Below, piece by piece: positions 1,997 through 61,350 of a stretch of DNA of 64,000 nucleotides. Origin of the DNA: Octopus vulgaris (lineage: Eukaryota); NCBI GenBank assembly GCA_951406725.2, contig OX597819.1, forward strand, positions 128,836,001 to 128,900,000, in the 5' to 3' direction. The translations under genes were made by a program, and so were the position numbers. The first letter of the stretch is position 1; every line of letters begins with the position of its first letter. The notes beneath the pieces are model-generated. The model did no database searches. It saw nothing but the letters and a program-made list of their open reading frames with translations, and was not told the DNA's origin.

Positions 1997-3092
1997 GGTA
2001 TCCAGTGGCTAGATGATATTTAATCGGGCGACGGATAAAGTCGCCCAAGAATTGATATTACCCCTCCGGATTGGATTCTATGCAATTAACATTAACACGA
2101 TTTAAATCACAAGACGGGGAGAACTCGAGGTTATGCCAAAAGAAATGTGTTCAAAATGCAGTACTGTGAGAACGAACCCGAGATGCGAAACGAACTTTTC
2201 ATTTCCACGACAAAATGAAGATTTTTTTGACTTCTCTTTTCATGACAAAACTATATCACTTTAAAGATAAACATTTTCTCTTCAAGTCTTTTAGTGATCC
2301 ACACTGTTGCTAAGCTTACATTTATGAGTGTGTGTGCGTGTGTGTATGCATGTGTGTGTTTGCATGTGTGTGGGTGGGTGTATTTTGTGCGAATTTGTGA
2401 ATGCGTGCGCATGGGAGTGCATTTGAATGCAAATGTGCGTGTGATATGCATGTGTGCATGGCGCACATGTACAACAGAAGTGCATGTCAGCGCGTAGAAG
2501 TGCGTGTATGTGTGAGCGTATGTACGCATGCACGCGCGTTTTGTGCGTATACATGCGGTTGTGCGTGTACATATGTGTGCGTTTCCATGCGCGCGTGTGT
2601 GTGTGTGTGTATGTATGACGCCCAAACCGTTTCCGTGTGCGACTCTGTATTAGTAACATGTACCATACTTTCGATAATTGCTTTAGGTGCCTCTGTAGCT
2701 CTGATCAAGCATAGACAGCTTCCTAGCCTTGATCCAGTGGCACAATCACAATGTGACAGAGAAGAGAGAGTGAGAGAGAGAGAGAGAGAGAGAAGGGGCG
2801 AGAGAGAAAAGGAGAGAGGGAGAGAGAGACAGAGAGAGAGAGGGAGAAAGCAAAAAAGCTGTATCAGTATCCAGCTGGTACGCATTAAAACTGAGTAAAC
2901 TGTAGAAACGTTAAAGGAAGAATCTTGTGCAACGACGCAACTTGATGCACGACCTAAGAACTGAACTCACAGATTTACGATTGACACTAAGCCACGTGCT
3001 TTTGCAAATATTTCAATAACTCAAAGGTTTAACTTGAATTTTTTGCCACGTTTTCTTGTTTTTTCAACTGACCTGTTTCAATATCTTTTCAG

Positions 3093-7127: not shown

Positions 7128-8593
7128 ACCACTATGAAGTAATGAATTAAACTAACGCATCCTGCTTCTTATACCAACCACCTTGCTGAATTAATGAAAC
7201 AGAGTAGCTTCTAAGTGATACCACATCACTAATAATTTCTCAGGAAGAACAAAGTAGACTGACTGAGCGTGCGAGTGTGTGTATGTAAGAAAGAGAGAGA
7301 GAGAGAGGAGAGAGAAAGGAAGAAGAGAGAGAGAAGGGCTGGTAGACAGACAGGCAGAGTAAGAGAAAGAGAAAAAAAGAGAATTTCTTTTTTCCCTGTC
7401 GTATCACCGATTAACACTATTTCCGTCTTCAGCGAGTATGTATATGATCTCTCGACCTGTTGGAAATAGTAACAAAATCCATCACAATTCATATACTACA
7501 GTCTTTGATGAAGAATATGTTGGACAATACTATACAAAAAGACCAATGGTCTTGAATCGAAGAGCTTTCGTTATAGGTATGTTCGATCAGAGCGGAGCTA
7601 GTAATAAGCAAGGGCAACCAACTTAAATCCAATGAATGAGAGAGGGCCTTTGGAGGCTCGCTAACCCAGCGAGAAATAGCAACCGAACGTCCCTCAGATC
7701 ACACCCTATTGATTTAAATTATGGGAAAATATACTGAAAAAAGTAGTTTTATACAAGCAATAAGACGAAAAAGACAAATCTATGCACATATGGTTTATGA
7801 AACATAATTTATCTTATATCATTAAATGGCTGGAAAATTTATTGATTTTGAAATATCAAAACAAACTATTAAATAAGCTCTTAGAATTAGCCTTCTCTTC
7901 ATGCAGTCATAAACATTGGTATCTACTTAAAATCTTTAATGACATACCATTAGGCATAACAAGAAATTCCAATTGAACAAACCTCATTTTCGCTTTAATT
8001 CTCTATTTTCTCTCTATATAGTATTTTGCGCAAAGATAGTAATAATAAATATGACCCCATTTCTATGATAAATTTATAACTCCCTACATAAAACCATCAA
8101 GGGTATAACCAATAGACATGAGAGGAAATCCCAATTGAATACACGTTTCCTTTTCTTTTTTGTTTTATTTTCTCTACAATTAGTGCTCTACGTTTTAGAA
8201 GTAATAAAGTTGTTTCATACCATAAGGTCAGGGCTTTGCCTCATTATTGCAAATTGGCTGCGAACGCGAACTCTTCCGATGATTCCACCTGCACCTTCCT
8301 GTCATACCAGCCTAGCGCAACAGAGTGCTGCTCCGCCGTTCGTAAGTACTTGGTCACCTAGCTGTTCCTGTTCAAATAGATATGCCACGAGCTACTGAGA
8401 ATCATCAATGAGGTCTATGGAACTGAATAAACGCACTTAATAATCCCTTGCTCAATGGGTCACACAATGATAAGTACCAACCCTGTTCCCCCACCAAAAA
8501 TTATTACGGAAATGTTTTGTTTCCATCCGCTTATTTATGAAAATATAAATAAATGATGAAAGGAACGTTTCATATTCAAACTCGGGACTATGA

Positions 8594-9010
8594 TACCTAT
8601 TTCTTTACTACCCACAAGGGGCTAAACACAGAGGGACAAACAAGGACAGACGAACGGATTAACTCGACTACATCGACACCAGTGCGTAACTGGTACTTAA
8701 TTTATCGACCCCGAAAGATTGAAAGGCAATGTCGACCTCGGCGGAATTTGAACTCAGAACGTAACGGCAGACGAGATACCTATTTCTTTATTGCCCACAA
8801 GGGGCTAAACATAGAGGGGACAAACAAGGACAGACATAGGTATTAAGTCGATTACATCGACCCCAGTGCGTAACTGGTACTTAATTTATCGACCCCGAAA
8901 GGATGAAAGGCAAAGTCGACCTCGGCGGAATTTGAACTCAGAACGTAACGGCAGACGAAATACCGCTAAGCATTTCGCCCGGCGTGCTAACGATTCTGCC
9001 AGCTCGCCGC
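8594..9010 (-). mobile_element. SINE family A dimer
   Basis: Two units with junction AAAGAAATA|GGTATCTCG at about 8772-8790. Confidence 0.9.
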
Positions 9011-9222
9011 GATACCGACGGTCTTAAATGAACGTCTTTTTCTCCTACTCTTTACCACCATTTTTTTTAGTGACCCCATTTTTATATTTCAGCAATTTAA
9101 ATTTTCCCCCACTTCAGACTCATTCGCTTCTTATGCTTCTTTATTTCTCTTTCTTTCTCATTCCCTCACCTCCTTTCTGCACATGCGTCCTCCATCATTG
9201 ATAATATATTCTCTTATGCAAA

Positions 9223-9811
9223 GGCGGCGTGCTGACAGAAACGTTAGCACGCCGGGTGAAATGCTTAGCGGTATTTCGTCTGCCGCTACGTTCTGAGTTC
9301 AAATTCCGCCGAGGTCGACTTTGCCTTTCGTCCTTTCGGGGTCGATAAATAAAGTATCTGTTAGGCACTGGGGTCGATGTAATCGACTTAATCCGTTTGT
9401 CTGTCCTTGTTTATCCCCTCTATGTTTAGCCCCTTGTGGGTAGTAAAGAAATAGATATTCGTCTGGCGTTATGTTCTGAGTTCAAATTCCGCTGAGGTGG
9501 ACTTTACCTTTCATCCTTTCGGGGTCGATAAATTAAGTACCAGTTACACACTGATCGATATAATCGATTTAATCCGTTTGTCTGTCCTTGTTTGTCCCTT
9601 CTGTGTTTAGCCCCTTGTGGGTAGTAAAGAAATAGGTATTTCGTCTGCCGCTACGTTCAAATTCCGTCGAGGTCGACTTTACCTTTCATCCTTTCGGGGT
9701 CGATAAATTAAGTACCGGTTACACACTGGGGTCGATGTAATCGACTTAATCCGTTCGTCTGTCCTTGTTTGTCCCTTCTGTGTTTGGCCCCTTGTGGGTA
9801 GTAAAGAAATA
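9223..9811 (+). mobile_element. SINE family A trimer
   Basis: Three units with junctions near 9453 and 9634. Target-site duplication ATATATT(C/T)TCTTATGC. Confidence 0.9.
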
Positions 9812-10247
9812 TATATTTTCTTATGCCTAAAATGCAGCCGACCCACGAACTAACAACACACACACACTTTGTGTATGTGTGACCGATTTTGTTTATATAC
9901 TTCGAGTTGCCTCTAATTCATATTTGAATTTTTTTTTCTGTGGCATGAAACGTTGCGACATGGCAAGGGATGGTCTTTAAACCATTTAGCATATAGTCAT
10001 AGCCGGCGATATAGCTTGCAGCAGGCTTGATCGGTACGCAGCATTAAAAAGTCACAACAATGACGAAATATCGATGTCTGTTGCACCGAAAAGGGCCCTG
10101 GTGTAAGTTGTCTCGCTTGTCTCTGATTTGCTTTCAGTTATTTTCAACAGGCGCATTGAGGATATATTCTCTAACGCCTAAAACGTAGCCGACCCACAAA
10201 CTAACAACACTCACTTTGTGCATGTGTGTCTGATTTTGTGTATGTAT

Positions 10248-41400: not shown

Positions 41401-42133
41401 AATTACTATCAATAAAAGCAATCTTTATATTCAACATAACGTGGATGTCTTGTTAGAGCGCCGAATACTGCGCAGTGATCAGCGCTCTCACAAGACATCC
41501 AAATTAAATTGGATATAAAAATTGACTTTTCGTACTAATACCTATTTCTTTACTACCCACAAGGGGCTAAACACAGAGAGGACAAACAAGGACAGACAAC
41601 AGATTAAGTCGATTATATCTATTTCTTTACTGCACACAAGGGGCTAAACACAGAGAGGACAAACAAGGACAGACAAACGGATTAAGTCGATTATATCGAC
41701 CCCAGTGCGTAACTGGTACTTATTTAATCGACCTCGAAAGGATGAAAGGTAAAGTCGACCTCGGCGGAATTTGAACTCAGAACGTAACGGCAGACGAAAT
41801 ACCGCTAAGCATTTCGCCCGACGTGCTAACGATTCTGCCAGCTCGCCGCCATTTGGTACTAATATCGTTTCGTCGCTAATAGTCACAATAAATAATGTTT
41901 AATGACATTAATTTTGCCGAACATCTATGCCACCAATTCTTAACCTGGTTAATTTAGGATTCCTGTGGGAAATTTTAAGGCTGTAGCAAGGGAATTTTTT
42001 TATTTAAGTTGAAAATTCTTTATCATTATTTGCAACATTTTTGCTAGATTTATTTTCATTAATGTTGATTGTATGAATACTAGTCTTAAATTTATATAGC
42101 GTTATGGGTCTTGTCGTGTGTGTGCGCGCGCGC

Positions 42134-50784: not shown

Positions 50785-52411
50785 TCTCTTATTATAAAAG
50801 GCAGATTTTATCTGCCTCCCTTTGTCTCTTATAGAAATCTACAATATAGGATTTCTTCAATTACAATTTACCTAGCATTTTTAAGAGTAGAATGCATCGG
50901 GTCTTGCCAGGTCCACTTTTTAAAATTTCAACCCCAATTAAGCAAAATTTAGAGAAAACTCACATTGTGGTGTATGAGTCAAATGCTTTTCTTAGTGTGT
51001 GATACGGCACACGCACACGCACACACACAGTGTGCAACGAATAAAGTGAAAGTAATTCACTGTGTGTGTGTTGACAGGTAGACAATAGAATGCGATGGCG
51101 ATGGCGATGTAATATTTGTTTCTGTCTATGACGCTGATAGATACATGAGTAAAATGTATGGGAAGCTAAGAGATAAGAGTGAGTGAAAATGTTCTTGGAA
51201 GAGAGTAAATAGCGAGAGAGTGATTTGAGGAAGACTTTACATTAAATAACCGTAGTGGCTTGTCACATGAAGAGGAGTGAGAGGGTACTGGAGGAAATAG
51301 GGTGAGTGAGGAAGATGGCCCCTAGCAACCACACCTTTTAAGATAGGGATTTCTAAGGTAGCCCACGAGCATCGTCACCTCATTCTACATGTCCCTGTAA
51401 ATTTTGGAGCGAATCGGACGGGATAAAGTTATCTCTAATAAACAGAAAGATCGCCCAAAAGTGTATATAGATATTTAAATGTATTTATATATTCATCTAT
51501 ACACACATGTATGTATAATGTGCGTGTATATATTTCCATAGAGGTAACCATTCAATTCATACAAAGTTTTTTAGGACGAAAATATTTATATATAAAAGAA
51601 AGGTTGTGTGTCTGTCTACTCCGATTTAGATTCCTAACTACTCCCACATTTTGCGATGCAGTTTGACCAAAACCGGGTATCTTATAGTCGTGATTCATAT
51701 TGAGCCCTTCTGAGTATTAGCGCGCGTCTACGATGAGTCTATGATTTTACAAATAATTTACCATAATTTTTTTCCATTTTAATGCATATTTTTTTTAATA
51801 AAGGGAAGTAATTCTCAAACTTCACACCAATATGCATGCTCATATGCGACGTAATATCACATCAGCAGCATTTCCTCACACCCTCCTTGCACTTGGCGAA
51901 GGCAAAATACCAGGGGATGAAAATGGTAATATTGCCATCGATTCCATTTGTAACATTGTTAAGACGCCTTCTGATCTCAGAGATGCAGTGTTCCCAGATC
52001 TACAAGCTAATTATCAGAATATGGATTGGATTGGCAAAAAGGCTATACTGGCCCCGAGGAATAAAACTGTTCACCATATTAATGATGTCTGGGGAAGTCT
52101 ATGTATATCAGTCTATCGATACAACTTCTGACCCAGAGGACGTCATCAACTATCCAATAGAGGTACTCAATTCCTTTGAGCACCCCGGACTACCACCACA
52201 CTTTCTCAAACTTAAAGTTGGTACCCCTATAATGCTCATCAGAAATTTGGTTCCCCCAAAACAATGCAATGGCACACGTTTGATCGTTAAGTCCTTATCT
52301 CCCACCGTAAACTTATATCAATATTTGCCTGAATAATCATCATAATTCAGTGCAATCATTAACAGTACTTTCAAGCAATTCAGCCCCGAGCAACGCCGGG
52401 CAATTCTGCTA

Positions 52412-53190: not shown

Positions 53191-53938
53191 TGTGTGTGTT
53201 TGTGTTTGTCCCCCTAGCATTGCTTGACAACCGATGCTGGTGTGTTTACGTCCCCGTCACTTAGCGGTTCGGCAAAAGAGACCGATAGAATAAGTACTGG
53301 GCTTACTAAAGAATAAGTCCCGGGGTCGAGTTGCTCGATTAAAGGTGGTGCTCCAGCATGGCCGCAGTCAAATGACTGAAACAAGTAAAAGAGTAAAAGA
53401 GTAAGAATATGTATGCATGTATATATACATATGTAGGTTGGTGTAGGTCCACTTCTGTTTTATAAAATAGTAAATCAATATTCTTGTCGATTCAAAAGAC
53501 GACAACCCGTCTGCAAAGCAATAATCTTGTATACGTAAGAAACGACTGAAGGTGATCGATAAAGTGTAAAAACAAACCTAAAAGAGTGGAGGTGGTAGGG
53601 GGGTATTCTATGGGGTCATTCGACCTTCTAGAACTAGCAGCTATATTACCCTCTTATCATACACGACACTCTTTAAAAAGGACGAATACATTGGACAATG
53701 AAGTCTTAGATGTATAAAAAGTTGATATGGTCATCACTGGAGCGGCTTCGATCATAGGCCTGCTCATTTTTTGTTGACCAGGGGTTAAACATGAACTATA
53801 ACTGCAATTAATTATAACTTTATTTCAACTTTGCCTGAACTGTAATACCTAAAGGCTGTAACAAACATCATGATTAAAGCGTATTTTATTTATTTGTGAA
53901 TAATGATTTTTTTTCTATGTATTTTATTTAAACGTTAG

Positions 53939-54065
53939 ATTTACTTGTGAAATGGAAGACAGCGAACTGATAACAATTGAAGATCGCACGGTGCAGTTTC
54001 ACGTCAATGACCTAGCTATGAAGTATCTCAAGTCAGTGTGGATTGGACTTCGCTATATAGAAGAC
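53939..54065 (+). CDS. C-type lectin exon e (CTLD2, WIGL motif)
   Basis: Acceptor aacgttAG, donor GAC|GTAAGA, phase 2 to 0. Encodes (Q)FTCEMEDSELITIEDRTVQFHVNDLAMKYLKSVWIGLRYIED, continuing W.NAQ..C from exon d across a 28.8-kb intron. Confidence 0.92.
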
Positions 54066-57369: not shown

Positions 57370-57461
57370 GAAGACAAAGGAGCCTACGAATGGCAGTGGA
57401 CTAACGGTAAACAAGTGTCTATAAATTTTTGGAATGAAGGTCGGTTTCCATTCATTAAAGA
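57370..57461 (+). CDS. C-type lectin exon f (CTLD2)
   Basis: Acceptor tattctAG, phase 0. Encodes EDKGAYEWQWTNGKQVSINFWNEGRFPFIK. Donor GA|GTGAGT at 57462 gives the phase 2 required by exon g; the nearer donor G|GTCGGT at 57440 would be out of frame. Confidence 0.85.
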
Positions 57462-57829
57462 GTGAGTAGCATTGAATCTTTTTACTTATTGTAATTGTTG
57501 ATGGTGTTATTGATTTTGCCCCGCGTTAGCCCTGACTGCAAGGACGACTTACTTTGAAAAGCATTACAGTTCCAAGCTATTTGAAGATTTCTAGAAGTAT
57601 ACCATCTAATGTGTTACCTTTTAAATGATTTTAGCGTGCAGGTAGAGTGGGTGGGCAACCGACCTGAGCCTCTCTTATAAAATGGTTCATTTGTTTATTT
57701 AAACAGAGTAAAAAAAGAATCTGATTGAGGAAAAAATAATAAAGACGTATCGAGTGCTGATCATGTATCAGTACTTTCGTTAGAAATATTTAGATGAATT
57801 AAAGTGGTTAGTCTCAGTATCTGTCGAAT

Positions 57830-58390
57830 TGTTTGGACATAACTTGATGTTTAGGAAATCTCTTTCTAACCTGGCAAAGTAGGGAGGGGCTCCGTCTTGT
57901 TGAAAAACATTAGAAAGATCACTCCACGTCTGAAGTTGCGGCACAGCAAACTCCAGGTAAGTTTCTCCTATAACGGTGGTCCAATGCATCATAGAAGAAA
58001 AATTGTCCACTCAGCCCAGTGCTAGACATGACACACCATACCACCAGCTTTTGAGAAGTAAAGGTGGTAGCAACAGGCCTTCTGCTGCGTGGTTTGTCAA
58101 GAACAGATCCTGTCTCGAGAAACTTTCAATGGATAACATAAATTGTGCTACGCGTTGGAACAGTGTGGCGGCCATAAACCTTCTCAAACTTGCGCTGAAC
58201 TGCAGCAGGGGACTGAAAAACTTCTGGCCAGGAGGCAATTTTGCAACGCTGCTCTAATGTCAATTGACGAGTCATGGGCAAGTCATGGGCGAGCCAAAGG
58301 TGTGAAATGCTGATGATCTCACGTCTCTCCGAATGATAGCTGGAACGAAATAGAAAAAAGAAAGTGTATACTGACTTTTGAGACACTCTG
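57830..58390 (-). mobile_element. Tc1/mariner transposon relic (left TIR plus internally deleted transposase)
   Basis: TA|CAGAGTGTCTCAAAAGTC TIR. N-terminal HTH MTRQLTLEQRCKI..SPAAVQRKF..PTRSTIYVIH*KFLETGSVLDKPRSRRP and catalytic fragment GETYLEFAVPQL..FQQDGAPPYFA. Confidence 0.88.
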
Positions 58391-58409
58391 TATATATATA
58401 TATATATAT

Positions 58410-58667
58410 GTAGCCTGTAGAGGGAATCCTTCATCGAGGAACGGTGCTTACCATACGTTGATAAGAGGCAATGACCTCGAAACCGGTCCGTATGTAGTAT
58501 TCGTATCTTCGAGGGAGGATGATCTCCCTTTACAGGCTAACAAGGACACCGATATGGTGTCGGTCCTTCTGGTGACGTCGATGATCGACTGGGGCTAAAA
58601 GCATCAGTAACACCCCCACCACCCCGCCCTGTCCCTAGCCACATTCAGTTGGCTGATCCTCCTTACG

Positions 58668-58668
<1 letters not shown>
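58410..58668 (+). mobile_element. ~260-bp structured non-coding element inserted in (TA)n, carrying the hammerhead (retrozyme or Penelope-pLTR-like)
   Basis: Flanked by (TA)n on both sides and GC-richer than its surroundings. Long hairpin 58411-58539 with further small hairpins downstream. Confidence 0.7.
58452..58494 (+). ncRNA. Minimal type I hammerhead ribozyme with U3-A8 variant core
   Basis: CATACG (58452-57), TTGATAA, GAGG caatga CCTC, GAAA, CCGG, TC, CGTATG (58489-94). Perfect stems I and II, palindromic ACCGGT stem III, GUC triplet with predicted cleavage after 58488. Confidence 0.82.
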
Positions 58669-58724
<56 letters not shown>

Positions 58725-58727
<3 letters not shown>

Positions 58728-59100
58728 ATGTTTGTTGCCGCTTTGATATGGCTGTTCTATGCAAAGCAATGTTACACATTTTAACCCCAGGAAAACATCA
58801 TTTCCAACTGGTTAACGACACAACCTGTGTCTTTTATATTGCGAGTAAGTGAGCAAACCACTCCCCGTCAAGCGTAACAAGACCAGCAGACCAGCTGGTT
58901 TCTGGGTGTGTTCTCGTCCTCAGTACTGAAAGCCTACCTGCTGGAGATGGCAGCTATCCGTTTCTACTCGCGATATATAAACAAAGAAGCGACAATCAGC
59001 CGCTGATCTCACAACAAGCTAATGTAGCTGGTTTCCTGGGGTTAAAATGTAGTAACATTGTTCTGCAAGGAAGAACCATGTGAAAGTGACAACAAATGTG
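58725..59100. repeat. Diverged inverted-repeat element (MITE-like)
   Basis: CAATGTTACACATTTTAACCCCAGGAAA is mirrored by TTTCCTGGGGTTAAAATGTAGTAACATTG, with weaker pairing extending outward. Confidence 0.7.
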
Positions 59101-61064: not shown

Positions 61065-61177
61065 ACAAGTGAAGAACAACACCTGTGCCTTTGCCGACCC
61101 ATATATTAAGACTGTCAACATATGGTTGTCAGGAGAGTGTCACTCACTGAAGCCATTCATGTGCCAGAAGAAAACGG
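61065..61177 (+). CDS. C-type lectin exon g (end of CTLD2)
   Basis: Acceptor atatacAG after a pyrimidine tract, donor G|GTAGGT, phase 2 to 1. Encodes (E)QVKNNTCAFADPYIKTVNIWLSGECHSLKPFMCQKKT. The gene continues downstream. Confidence 0.9.
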
Positions 61178-61350
61178 GTAGGTGTGTTTACATTACACCA
61201 GGGAAGACATGAAAACGATAAACAAAATTATGCACATTTTTATTAGTATCAGTATATACAAATAAGTTATACATTAGCATATCTGCAATATAATATCAAT
61301 TATATTGCAGATATGCTATAGTAGTATATAACAGTATATATATATATATA

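Follow-up and report, generated by a model that had tools for sequence, protein, structure and literature searches.

The window, by which we mean the whole 64-kb stretch of octopus DNA that was analyzed, carries exons of a lectin gene on the plus strand, which were followed with tblastn from position 3047 to beyond the window end. The exon at 53931 to 54065 matched protein P0001 (labeled C-type mannose receptor 2-like, Octopus sinensis) at 96%, and two further exons of this gene enclose a short element that contains a hammerhead ribozyme motif (Table 1). The element is thus intronic and sense to the lectin pre-mRNA, as proposed in an earlier note on this DNA, and nothing points to a host function of this position. 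The two (TA)n tracts described in that note are both present, but they are the insertion target and lie outside the element.

Several other repeats were seen in the same region. A broken remnant (57780 to 58390, minus strand; weak DUF4817 match, E value of 0.003), which from its transposase-like motifs we take to be Tc1/mariner-like, lies directly to the left of the element, and a MITE-like element of ~370 nt (58731 to 59096) with 68-nt inverted ends at 82% lies directly to the right of (TA)28; one microsatellite is common to these three mobile elements. The host gene has a 28.8-kb intron (25137 to 53931) between the exons matching P0001 residues 165 to 197 and 198 to 239. A Pif1 helicase 2B-domain fragment (51812 to 52333, plus strand; E value of 7e-15), likely a Helitron remnant, is also intronic, and an interspersed repeat that is very common in octopus is present as tandem units (183 to 184 nt and 77 nt) at positions 8592 to 9817 and 41538 to 41697.

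Table 1. Position of the element, its ribozyme motif, and its surroundings in the window
Feature	Position	Strand	Remark
Upstream exon, C-type mannose receptor 2-like gene	57370-57462	+	31/31 residues identical to P0001
Left (TA)n target tract	58391-58409		Last 7 bases (TATATAT) match element sequence at the truncation point (microhomology)
5'-truncated family A copy, U3-A8 subfamily	58410-58668	+	259 of ~360 nt
Long hairpin extending helix I through internal loop	58411-58539	+	Inner part covaries across families A, B, and D
Type I hammerhead motif	58452-58494	+	Helix I, 58452-58457/58489-58494; helix II, 58465-58468/58475-58478; 6-nt loop
Core 5' strand TTGATAA	58458-58464	+	U3 is 58458 and A8 is 58463, replacing C3-G8
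GAAA	58479-58482	+	
Self-complementary ACCGGT (A15.1, CCGG, U16.1)	58482-58487	+	Cofolding prediction
CCGG	58483-58486	+	
U16.1	58487	+	
C17	58488	+	
Predicted cleavage site	58488	+	3' of C17, GUC triplet; from hammerhead numbering
Hairpin GACACC/GGTGTC	58545-58561	+	97.6% of cells paired, one pair changed on both sides
Hairpin AGCCA/TGGCT	58637-58654	+	Immediately internal to the first 3' end; 95% paired, compensatory changes absent
Right (TA)28 target tract	58669-58724		
Downstream exon, same gene	61066-61180	+	Ends approximate

The letters, helices, and core of the hammerhead motif were confirmed at the position given for it. When both strands of the window were scanned with a relaxed type I hammerhead descriptor, the only match was the one at 58458 on the plus strand; a stricter descriptor returned the same single match and a total of one match in 200 resampled 64-kb windows. 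The fold of 58405 to 58675 had a z score of -4.2, which was equaled by none of 200 shuffles, and the pairs of helices I and II had probabilities of 0.79 to 1.0 in the ensemble fold. Rfam gave no hammerhead match, either for the whole window at the gathering threshold or for 58300 to 58800 at E values of ≤10, and returned only (TA)n-driven noise. The core reads (Y3)UGAN(R8)A...GAAA...UH in a three-helix junction with helix I open, and its 3-8 pair is a Watson-Crick U3-A8 pair. As to a possible tertiary contact between loops 1 and 2, an internal loop adjoins helix I, and the first C and last A of loop 2 are constant across the subfamilies of families A and B (see below). Published work distinguishes two relevant architectures: canonical metazoan type I hammerheads have a 6-bp helix I, a 4-bp helix II, and a palindromic loop of 2 to 4 nt on a short helix III and are active as dimers, whereas the minimal hammerhead (min-HHR) of Penelope-like elements (PLEs) has a helix II of 7 to 8 bp, a helix I of 4 to 5 bp, and an unpaired base 5' of helix II (Cervera and de la Pena 2014, PMC4209133). 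The earlier note spoke of minimal hammerheads, as typical of PLEs and metazoan retrozymes. With a helix I of 6 bp, a helix II of 4 bp, and no unpaired base 5' of helix II, the motif in the window has, as read from its sequence, the canonical metazoan type I architecture and not that of the PLE minimal type. Helix III of the monomer is predicted to be too short, and pairing between two copies is predicted in its place: ACCGGU self-pairs at -8.3 kcal/mol, and the two-copy cofold forms an intermolecular helix III, in agreement with the suggestion that the palindrome suits dimers.

The 259-nt window copy was used to search the 2.8-Gb assembly, in which the window lies on C6. There were 1,598 first-look candidates, and the full-length matches among the 40 that were scored were 92 to 98% identical. 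The sequence thus belongs to a multicopy family, here called family A, and the expected tandem arrays were found, with up to five same-strand units. However, the unit is not the ~260-nt element originally described. The arrays have a period of 360 nt, in which an AT-rich linker of ~100 nt joins the 3' end of one unit to the 5' end of the next, and the window copy is short by ~100 nt. Copies occur singly, in tandem, or as head-to-head pairs with one arm 5' truncated. Among 156 family A copies, 31 continue into a following unit and the other 125 terminate, 79 of them at unit position 250 to 264, 42 at 295 to 309, and 4 elsewhere; the family therefore has two 3' ends ~43 nt apart. TA-rich DNA follows directly after 95 of the 125 ends. 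Insertions of PLEs are described with the same kinds of features, namely partial tandems, an inverted truncated copy, a 30- to 40-bp tail often at one end only, and a bias for (TA)n (Craig et al. 2021, PMC8557442), and in an anole PLE the tail corresponds to the sequence separating two internal reverse transcription (RT) start sites (Frangieh et al. 2024, PMC11167929). Family A is a noncoding, tandem-forming retrozyme, with a unit inside the range of ~150 to 450 nt and a type I hammerhead in each unit, and it shows the marks of mobilization by a PLE: 5' truncation, tandem and inverted arms, an optional tail at one end, and a microsatellite target. The reverse transcriptase and GIY-YIG ORF of an autonomous PLE is absent from it, one unit joining the next directly.

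Contigs of two sequencing runs guessed to be RNA contain the unit together with the head-to-tail joint; genomic tandems and circles would both give such a joint, and it was given no weight in either direction. Contigs of runs X1, X18, and X19 (labeled organisms A, C, and D) contain the unit (L063:1480), core position 8 being A as well as G, so that related elements occur under more than one species label.

The window copy stops at the commoner of the two family 3' ends, without the ~43-nt tail, and differs from the nearest copy (L002) at 4 of 259 sites (98.5% identity), none of them in the ribozyme. Two or more consecutive hammerhead units, the condition under which a locus is called active by Li, Clavereau, and Pollet (2026 preprint, 10.64898/2026.07.22.740005), occur at other loci of the family; the window has a single truncated unit. 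Since it retains one ribozyme and 72% of the unit, this copy would give rise to neither a monomer nor a circle, and it is likely to have been dead on arrival as a 5'-truncated insertion. The idea of a ribozyme-bearing mobile family that may form circles thus holds as far as the multicopy mobile family goes, but a circle would not be expected from the truncated monomer on which the idea was based.

The conservation of the structure was examined across families A, B, and D in 21 hand-picked rows and 35 named pairs. Family B (L031 to L050) has a unit of ~355 nt, is 70% identical to family A, and has U3-A8 and a GAGA/TCTC helix II; in its helix I, some copies show a C·U mismatch, and in others an added G restores pairing. 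Family D (L189 to L217) is older and larger (2,427 candidates; unit of ~355 nt) and has the tail region common to families A and B. Its core is C3-G8 in 14 of the 17 motifs read, its palindrome, CCCGGG, is longer than that of family A, and, as aligned here, its helix II has a C·A mismatch at the base. Overall, the named pairs were paired in 95.1% of cases, compared with 87.1% after shuffling (0 of 500 shuffles, in a test that is inflated by the relatedness of the rows) and 29 to 47% with slid partners. Two-sided changes were seen for ten pairs, distributed over helices I and II, the extension, and one hairpin farther downstream, although by number alone these pairs did not exceed what shuffling gave (87 of 500). 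Helices I and II were 95% and 94% paired, with two-sided changes present. The covarying stems anticipated from the single copy are therefore found across its relatives, with some corrections. The outer hairpin off stem I holds in family A but is out of register across families, and of the hairpins proposed farther downstream, GACACC/GGTGTC and AGCCA/TGGCT are conserved (Table 1), whereas GTCGA/TCGAC is private to the window copy, as it depends on A58588, which is C in the nearest copy and in the other aligned family A rows (one T).

The state of the 3-8 pair was counted from exact matches in one pattern frame: 277 with U3 and A8 or G8, 30 with C3 and A8, and 102 with C3 or U3 and G8, with none for the reversed-pattern controls. 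Among the 100 of the 102 C/U3-G8 matches that were listed, 98 were C-G and 2 were U·G, and the other two were taken as C-G. This gives 407 exact-motif copies, of which 275 are U-A, 100 C-G, 30 C·A, and 2 U·G, the U·G copies being lone decayed members of other classes. A Watson-Crick pair is present in 375 of the 407 copies and absent in 32, in a count that selects for intact motifs. The compensatory nature of U3-A8 in the window, as claimed from one copy, is therefore backed by real covariation, but the pair is not always kept, the 30 C3·A8 copies being the exception.

These mismatched copies form a subfamily of their own. One common loop 2 is present in 24 of the 30 C·A matches and in no G8 copy among the matches listed. 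The subfamily has 27 copies, which are spread over 18 loci and many contigs and have their own breakpoints and (TA)n flanks, although two of the loci (L178 and L179) share breakpoints and are of doubtful independence. Flank matches between the loci are short (≤225 nt), as expected of dispersed repeats. At the inverted C·A loci, the two arms almost always differ in their ends, at ~262 in one and ~301 to 307 in the other. A private diagnostic base is found in 93% of the C·A copies, and the median distance of these copies to the majority sequence of their class is 1 base in ~205, compared with 6 for the class of the window copy. The mismatch state C3·A8 itself has spread, as a young subfamily that was inserted at these 18 loci, with the reservation for L178 and L179. 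The latter two, 160 kb apart on C16, are inverted C·A insertions with both internal breakpoints identical but the tail carried by different arms, a pattern that two rounds of copying from a single inverted master, with the RT start sites exchanged, would give.

A tree was built from 59 rows with positions 3 and 8 masked, flanks trimmed, and family B as the outgroup, using a single row from each locus, at most 7 or 12 from each class, and no minor loop variants. The C·A and C-G rows formed a 100/100 clade within U-A, and the C-G rows formed a 96/94 clade nested in a starlike set of C·A rows, with a bootstrap that was not fully settled (0.978); an earlier tree with truncated flanks left in, which had split C-G into two groups, is superseded by this one. 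The seven labels require six changes on the masked tree, the fewest possible. The simplest reading, from the topology of the tree, is that the 3-8 pair in family A went from U-A to C·A and then to C-G. Because C7-G8 is a CpG, A8 could also be a reversion from G8; such a reversion in an unsampled master would cost one extra change and is disfavored by parsimony. The three backgrounds are ~90 to 96% alike. Mixed-subfamily insertions were seen at 2 of 43 multiunit loci, one of them clear; an initial count of 14 of 45 loci, taken as subfamily template switching and hence as evidence of heterodimers, had been inflated by truncated flanks and was withdrawn. L186 was likewise dropped as a locus mixing C·A and C-G, both of its units being on C-G-type backgrounds.

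Related ribozymes give some idea of how well each core state would cut. In the anole PLE hammerhead, C3G and G8C each abolish activity and leave insertion in vitro unaffected (PMC11167929); from its broken 3-8 pair, C3·A8 is presumably crippled likewise. U3-A8 has been found in ~1,300 PLE-related motifs of Schistosoma (PMC4209133), and natural U3-A8 hammerheads with cited activity in vitro have been described (Perreault et al. 2011, PMC3088659), while in a type III hammerhead construct rescue was obtained by the G3-C8 swap only (Roberts et al. 2023, PMC9901934). The activity of U3-A8 thus appears to depend on context and may be weak in family A.

The proposed connection with Penelope agrees with the tandem and inverted arms, the two 3' ends, and the (TA)n target, but no Penelope ORF was linked to the unit at the loci read. 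In 6 kb upstream of 20 family B loci, no PLE frame joined to the unit was seen among frames of at least 150 amino acids, and a comparison with the pLTRs of two autonomous PLE families gave no significant match beyond GAAACCGGT. One of the two, a Hydra-type PLE, was rejected as the parent. A fragment of it lies 400 nt upstream of a family B copy in L042, the unit having been inserted into the Hydra-type element, and L081 is the same host continuing without the insert; moreover, the Hydra-type element has a CTGATGAG hammerhead of its own. Its assignment to the Hydra clade, made in part from its motifs, is presumptive. This PLE (L071 to L100) had 16,272 candidates and ends in (TA)n, and a hammerhead-like motif with a canonical core was seen in it that has an unusually long helix II (~55 nt; L096:2190-2290).

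The second PLE had 15,798 candidates, with many near-identical copies and open frames of 776 to 847 amino acids, and has reverse transcriptase, CX4CxxC linker, and GIY-YIG domains, the GIY-YIG domain being seen on a related fragment; by the description in PMC8557442, it is Neptune-type. It also has an upstream ORF and a microsatellite-rich 3' region of >1.5 kb (L248 to L251 and L256 to L285; e.g., G000:C13:52243000-52250000). Its terminal repeat contains a hammerhead-like motif (434 exact copies) with U3-A8, in 100 of 100 among the matches listed, and with GAAA-CCGG-T as in family A, together with an irregular helix II base and U17. The 3' ends that abut (TA)n are again two, at 18 and 13 of 31, ~45 nt apart. 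As a sequence parent of family A this element was rejected, with homology of ≤9 nt; its tail aligned with that of family A no better than chance (210 of 500 shuffles), and there was no cross-pairing between the helix I strands of the two. The Neptune-type PLE is nevertheless the best candidate driver, on grounds of youth, target, and end geometry and not of shared sequence. A (TA)n-targeting Naiad is recorded for this species, in an account in which Naiad has long been inactive in cephalopods (PMC8557442).

We are fairly confident that family A is a nonautonomous retrozyme that was inserted by target-primed reverse transcription of the PLE type, the enzyme being a putative one. Tandem arrays would first be transcribed, and two hammerheads are predicted to pair through ACCGGU and to cut after C17, releasing 360-nt monomers that may be circularized. 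A PLE enzyme would then nick (TA)n and start RT internally at either of two sites separated by ~43 nt, in keeping with the observed ends and target. An early stop or a strand switch would produce the truncated, tandem, and inverted insertions that were found. In the window, copying would have halted at the TATATAT microhomology, leaving a copy with a single ribozyme that would not release a unit-length RNA. How far the cutting step matters is a separate question. The natural series of cores, which includes a spreading C3·A8, suggests that cutting may not be needed for every jump. The ribozyme is probably useful over time without being required in every round, although for this last point the odds against rescue in trans are closer to even. 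A bolder reading, which we hold with rather less than even confidence, is that U3-A8 was replaced by C3-G8 by way of a C3·A8 master that reached at least 18 new sites. The retrozyme RNA would be mobilized by PLE enzymes either uncut or cut in trans by sister subfamilies through helix III heterodimers, with the Neptune-type PLE, which has the same CCGG, as the helper. Cleavage would then be a long-term advantage, through monomers, circles, and longer arrays, and not a requirement.

A stricter model, in which every round needs cleavage and circularization and C3·A8 spread through trans cutting by C-G or U-A RNAs in helix III heterodimers or through residual activity, seems to us rather unlikely. 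The pairing potential is there, since the helix I strands of all family A subfamilies cross-pair at -4 to -5 kcal/mol and the CCGG palindrome is common to them; in addition, only 32 copies have lost the Watson-Crick 3-8 pair, and mussel retrozymes of similar size form circles (PMC7229834). However, insertions of mixed subfamily are rare, and insertion by the anole PLE in vitro is independent of cleavage (PMC11167929). Array sizes point in both directions. Among the matches listed, and after exclusion of 16 family B rows, 1 U·G row (of 100 listed), and 3 of the 30 C·A rows, whose loops are of the U-A type, arrays of at least three units occur at 5 of 59 C-G loci, 0 of 65 U-A loci, and 1 of 20 C·A loci (C-G versus U-A, P = 0.02, one of three post hoc tests), a weak hint that the canonical core may give longer arrays. 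Arrays of at least two units, on the other hand, show no difference in the same matches (12 of 59 C-G loci versus 10 of 65 U-A loci, P = 0.49; 2 of 20 for C·A), and a C·A trimer is present at L164.

At the other extreme, the hammerhead fold might be kept for protein binding or folding, with no relevant cutting rate in any subfamily. Taken together, U3-A8 and C3·A8 account for 305 of the 407 copies, the candidate driver likewise has U3-A8 with its irregular helix II base and U17, the minimal hammerheads of PLEs are poor cutters in vitro (PMC4209133), and no reads ended at the cut site of the anole element (PMC11167929). We find this reading improbable all the same, given that the catalytic letters UGA, A9, GAAA, and UC are kept across families ~70% alike, that Watson-Crick 3-8 pairs predominate both in family A and among the family D motifs, and that U3-A8 is reported to be active in vitro (PMC3088659). 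It is very improbable that the copies are mere truncated 3' ends (pLTRs) of an autonomous PLE and not a self-standing nonautonomous family. The insertion signature of such ends is identical, and a Hydra-type fragment does precede the copy at L042, but what precedes the hammerhead is the 3' end of another 360-nt unit, repeated as many as five times, none of the 20 family B loci gave a PLE frame joined to the unit within the 6 kb searched, L081 shows the L042 host without the insert, and each of the two PLE families compared ends differently from the unit. Finally, we give hardly any credence to a domesticated ribozyme that regulates the lectin pre-mRNA in the manner of the conserved RECK intron hammerhead, for although the motif is sense, intronic, and intact and intronic hammerheads exist in amniotes, the copy is young, being 98.5% identical to dispersed copies, is a lone monomer without a stable helix III, and belongs to a kind of element of which ~42 to 44% of the Xenopus copies are intronic anyway (Li et al. 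preprint).

Returning to family A as a PLE-mobilized retrozyme, the element is of a known kind: U3-A8 hammerheads and mollusc retrozymes of 350 to 390 nt have already been published. Like the non-long-terminal-repeat retrozymes of animals, it has a noncoding, structured tandem unit (170 to 400 nt in those elements) with one type I hammerhead per unit, exists mostly as monomers and short arrays, and shares its genome with autonomous PLEs. The retrozymes of Mytilus galloprovincialis (350 to 390 nt) cleave and form circles, with PLEs named as likely drivers (Cervera and de la Pena 2020, PMC7229834), whereas the octopus family is known here from sequence. It further differs from mussel-type retrozymes in its majority U3-A8 core and amplified C3·A8 subfamily and in its two 3' ends, inverted arms, and (TA)n target, and no pLTR homology to a resident PLE was found in it among the two PLE families compared. 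In vertebrates, PLE drive is supported by the preprint of Li et al., in which one of nine Xenopus retrozyme dimers was cleaved and eight were not. Covariation at 3-8 that escapes CUGANGA descriptors is shared with the min-HHR variant of the Schistosoma Cercyon-PLE (PMC4209133) and with the variants of Perreault et al. (PMC3088659); in contrast to these, the octopus U3-A8 sits on the canonical 6-bp/4-bp scaffold in a retrozyme, where a single family includes dated subfamilies for the mismatch as well as for each end state. With the PLEs Neptune, Hydra, Naiad, and Poseidon (PMC8557442) and the anole element PAc (PMC11167929), family A has in common tandem and inverted 5'-truncated insertions, AT or (TA)n targets, and a hammerhead upstream of the RT starts, as well as a tail at one end, of ~43 nt compared with 30 to 40 nt in PLEs. 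Unlike PLEs, it is without an ORF, and its units repeat directly head to tail. In the literature covered, neither a retrozyme from octopus nor an amplified subfamily with C3·A8 was found; outside this coverage are Lunse et al. 2017, Przybilski and Hammann 2007, a file of PMC4209133, and the PMC7229834 supplement, any of which may bear on both points. Within the coverage, the amplified C3·A8 subfamily is apparently new.

The window copy itself is an ordinary insertion, dead in all likelihood, and its value lies in the subfamily series to which it leads. The role of hammerheads in PLEs and animal retrozymes is debated, one model needing both cleavage and circles, while the sole PLE reconstituted so far inserts equally well with a dead ribozyme (PMC11167929). 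Family A offers clear genomic evidence that an enzyme of the PLE type, itself putative, copies a retrozyme with a canonical hammerhead in an invertebrate. Additionally, natural U-A, C·A, and C-G alleles with their insertion records are present together with a young, intact PLE in one genome, which makes a direct experiment possible.
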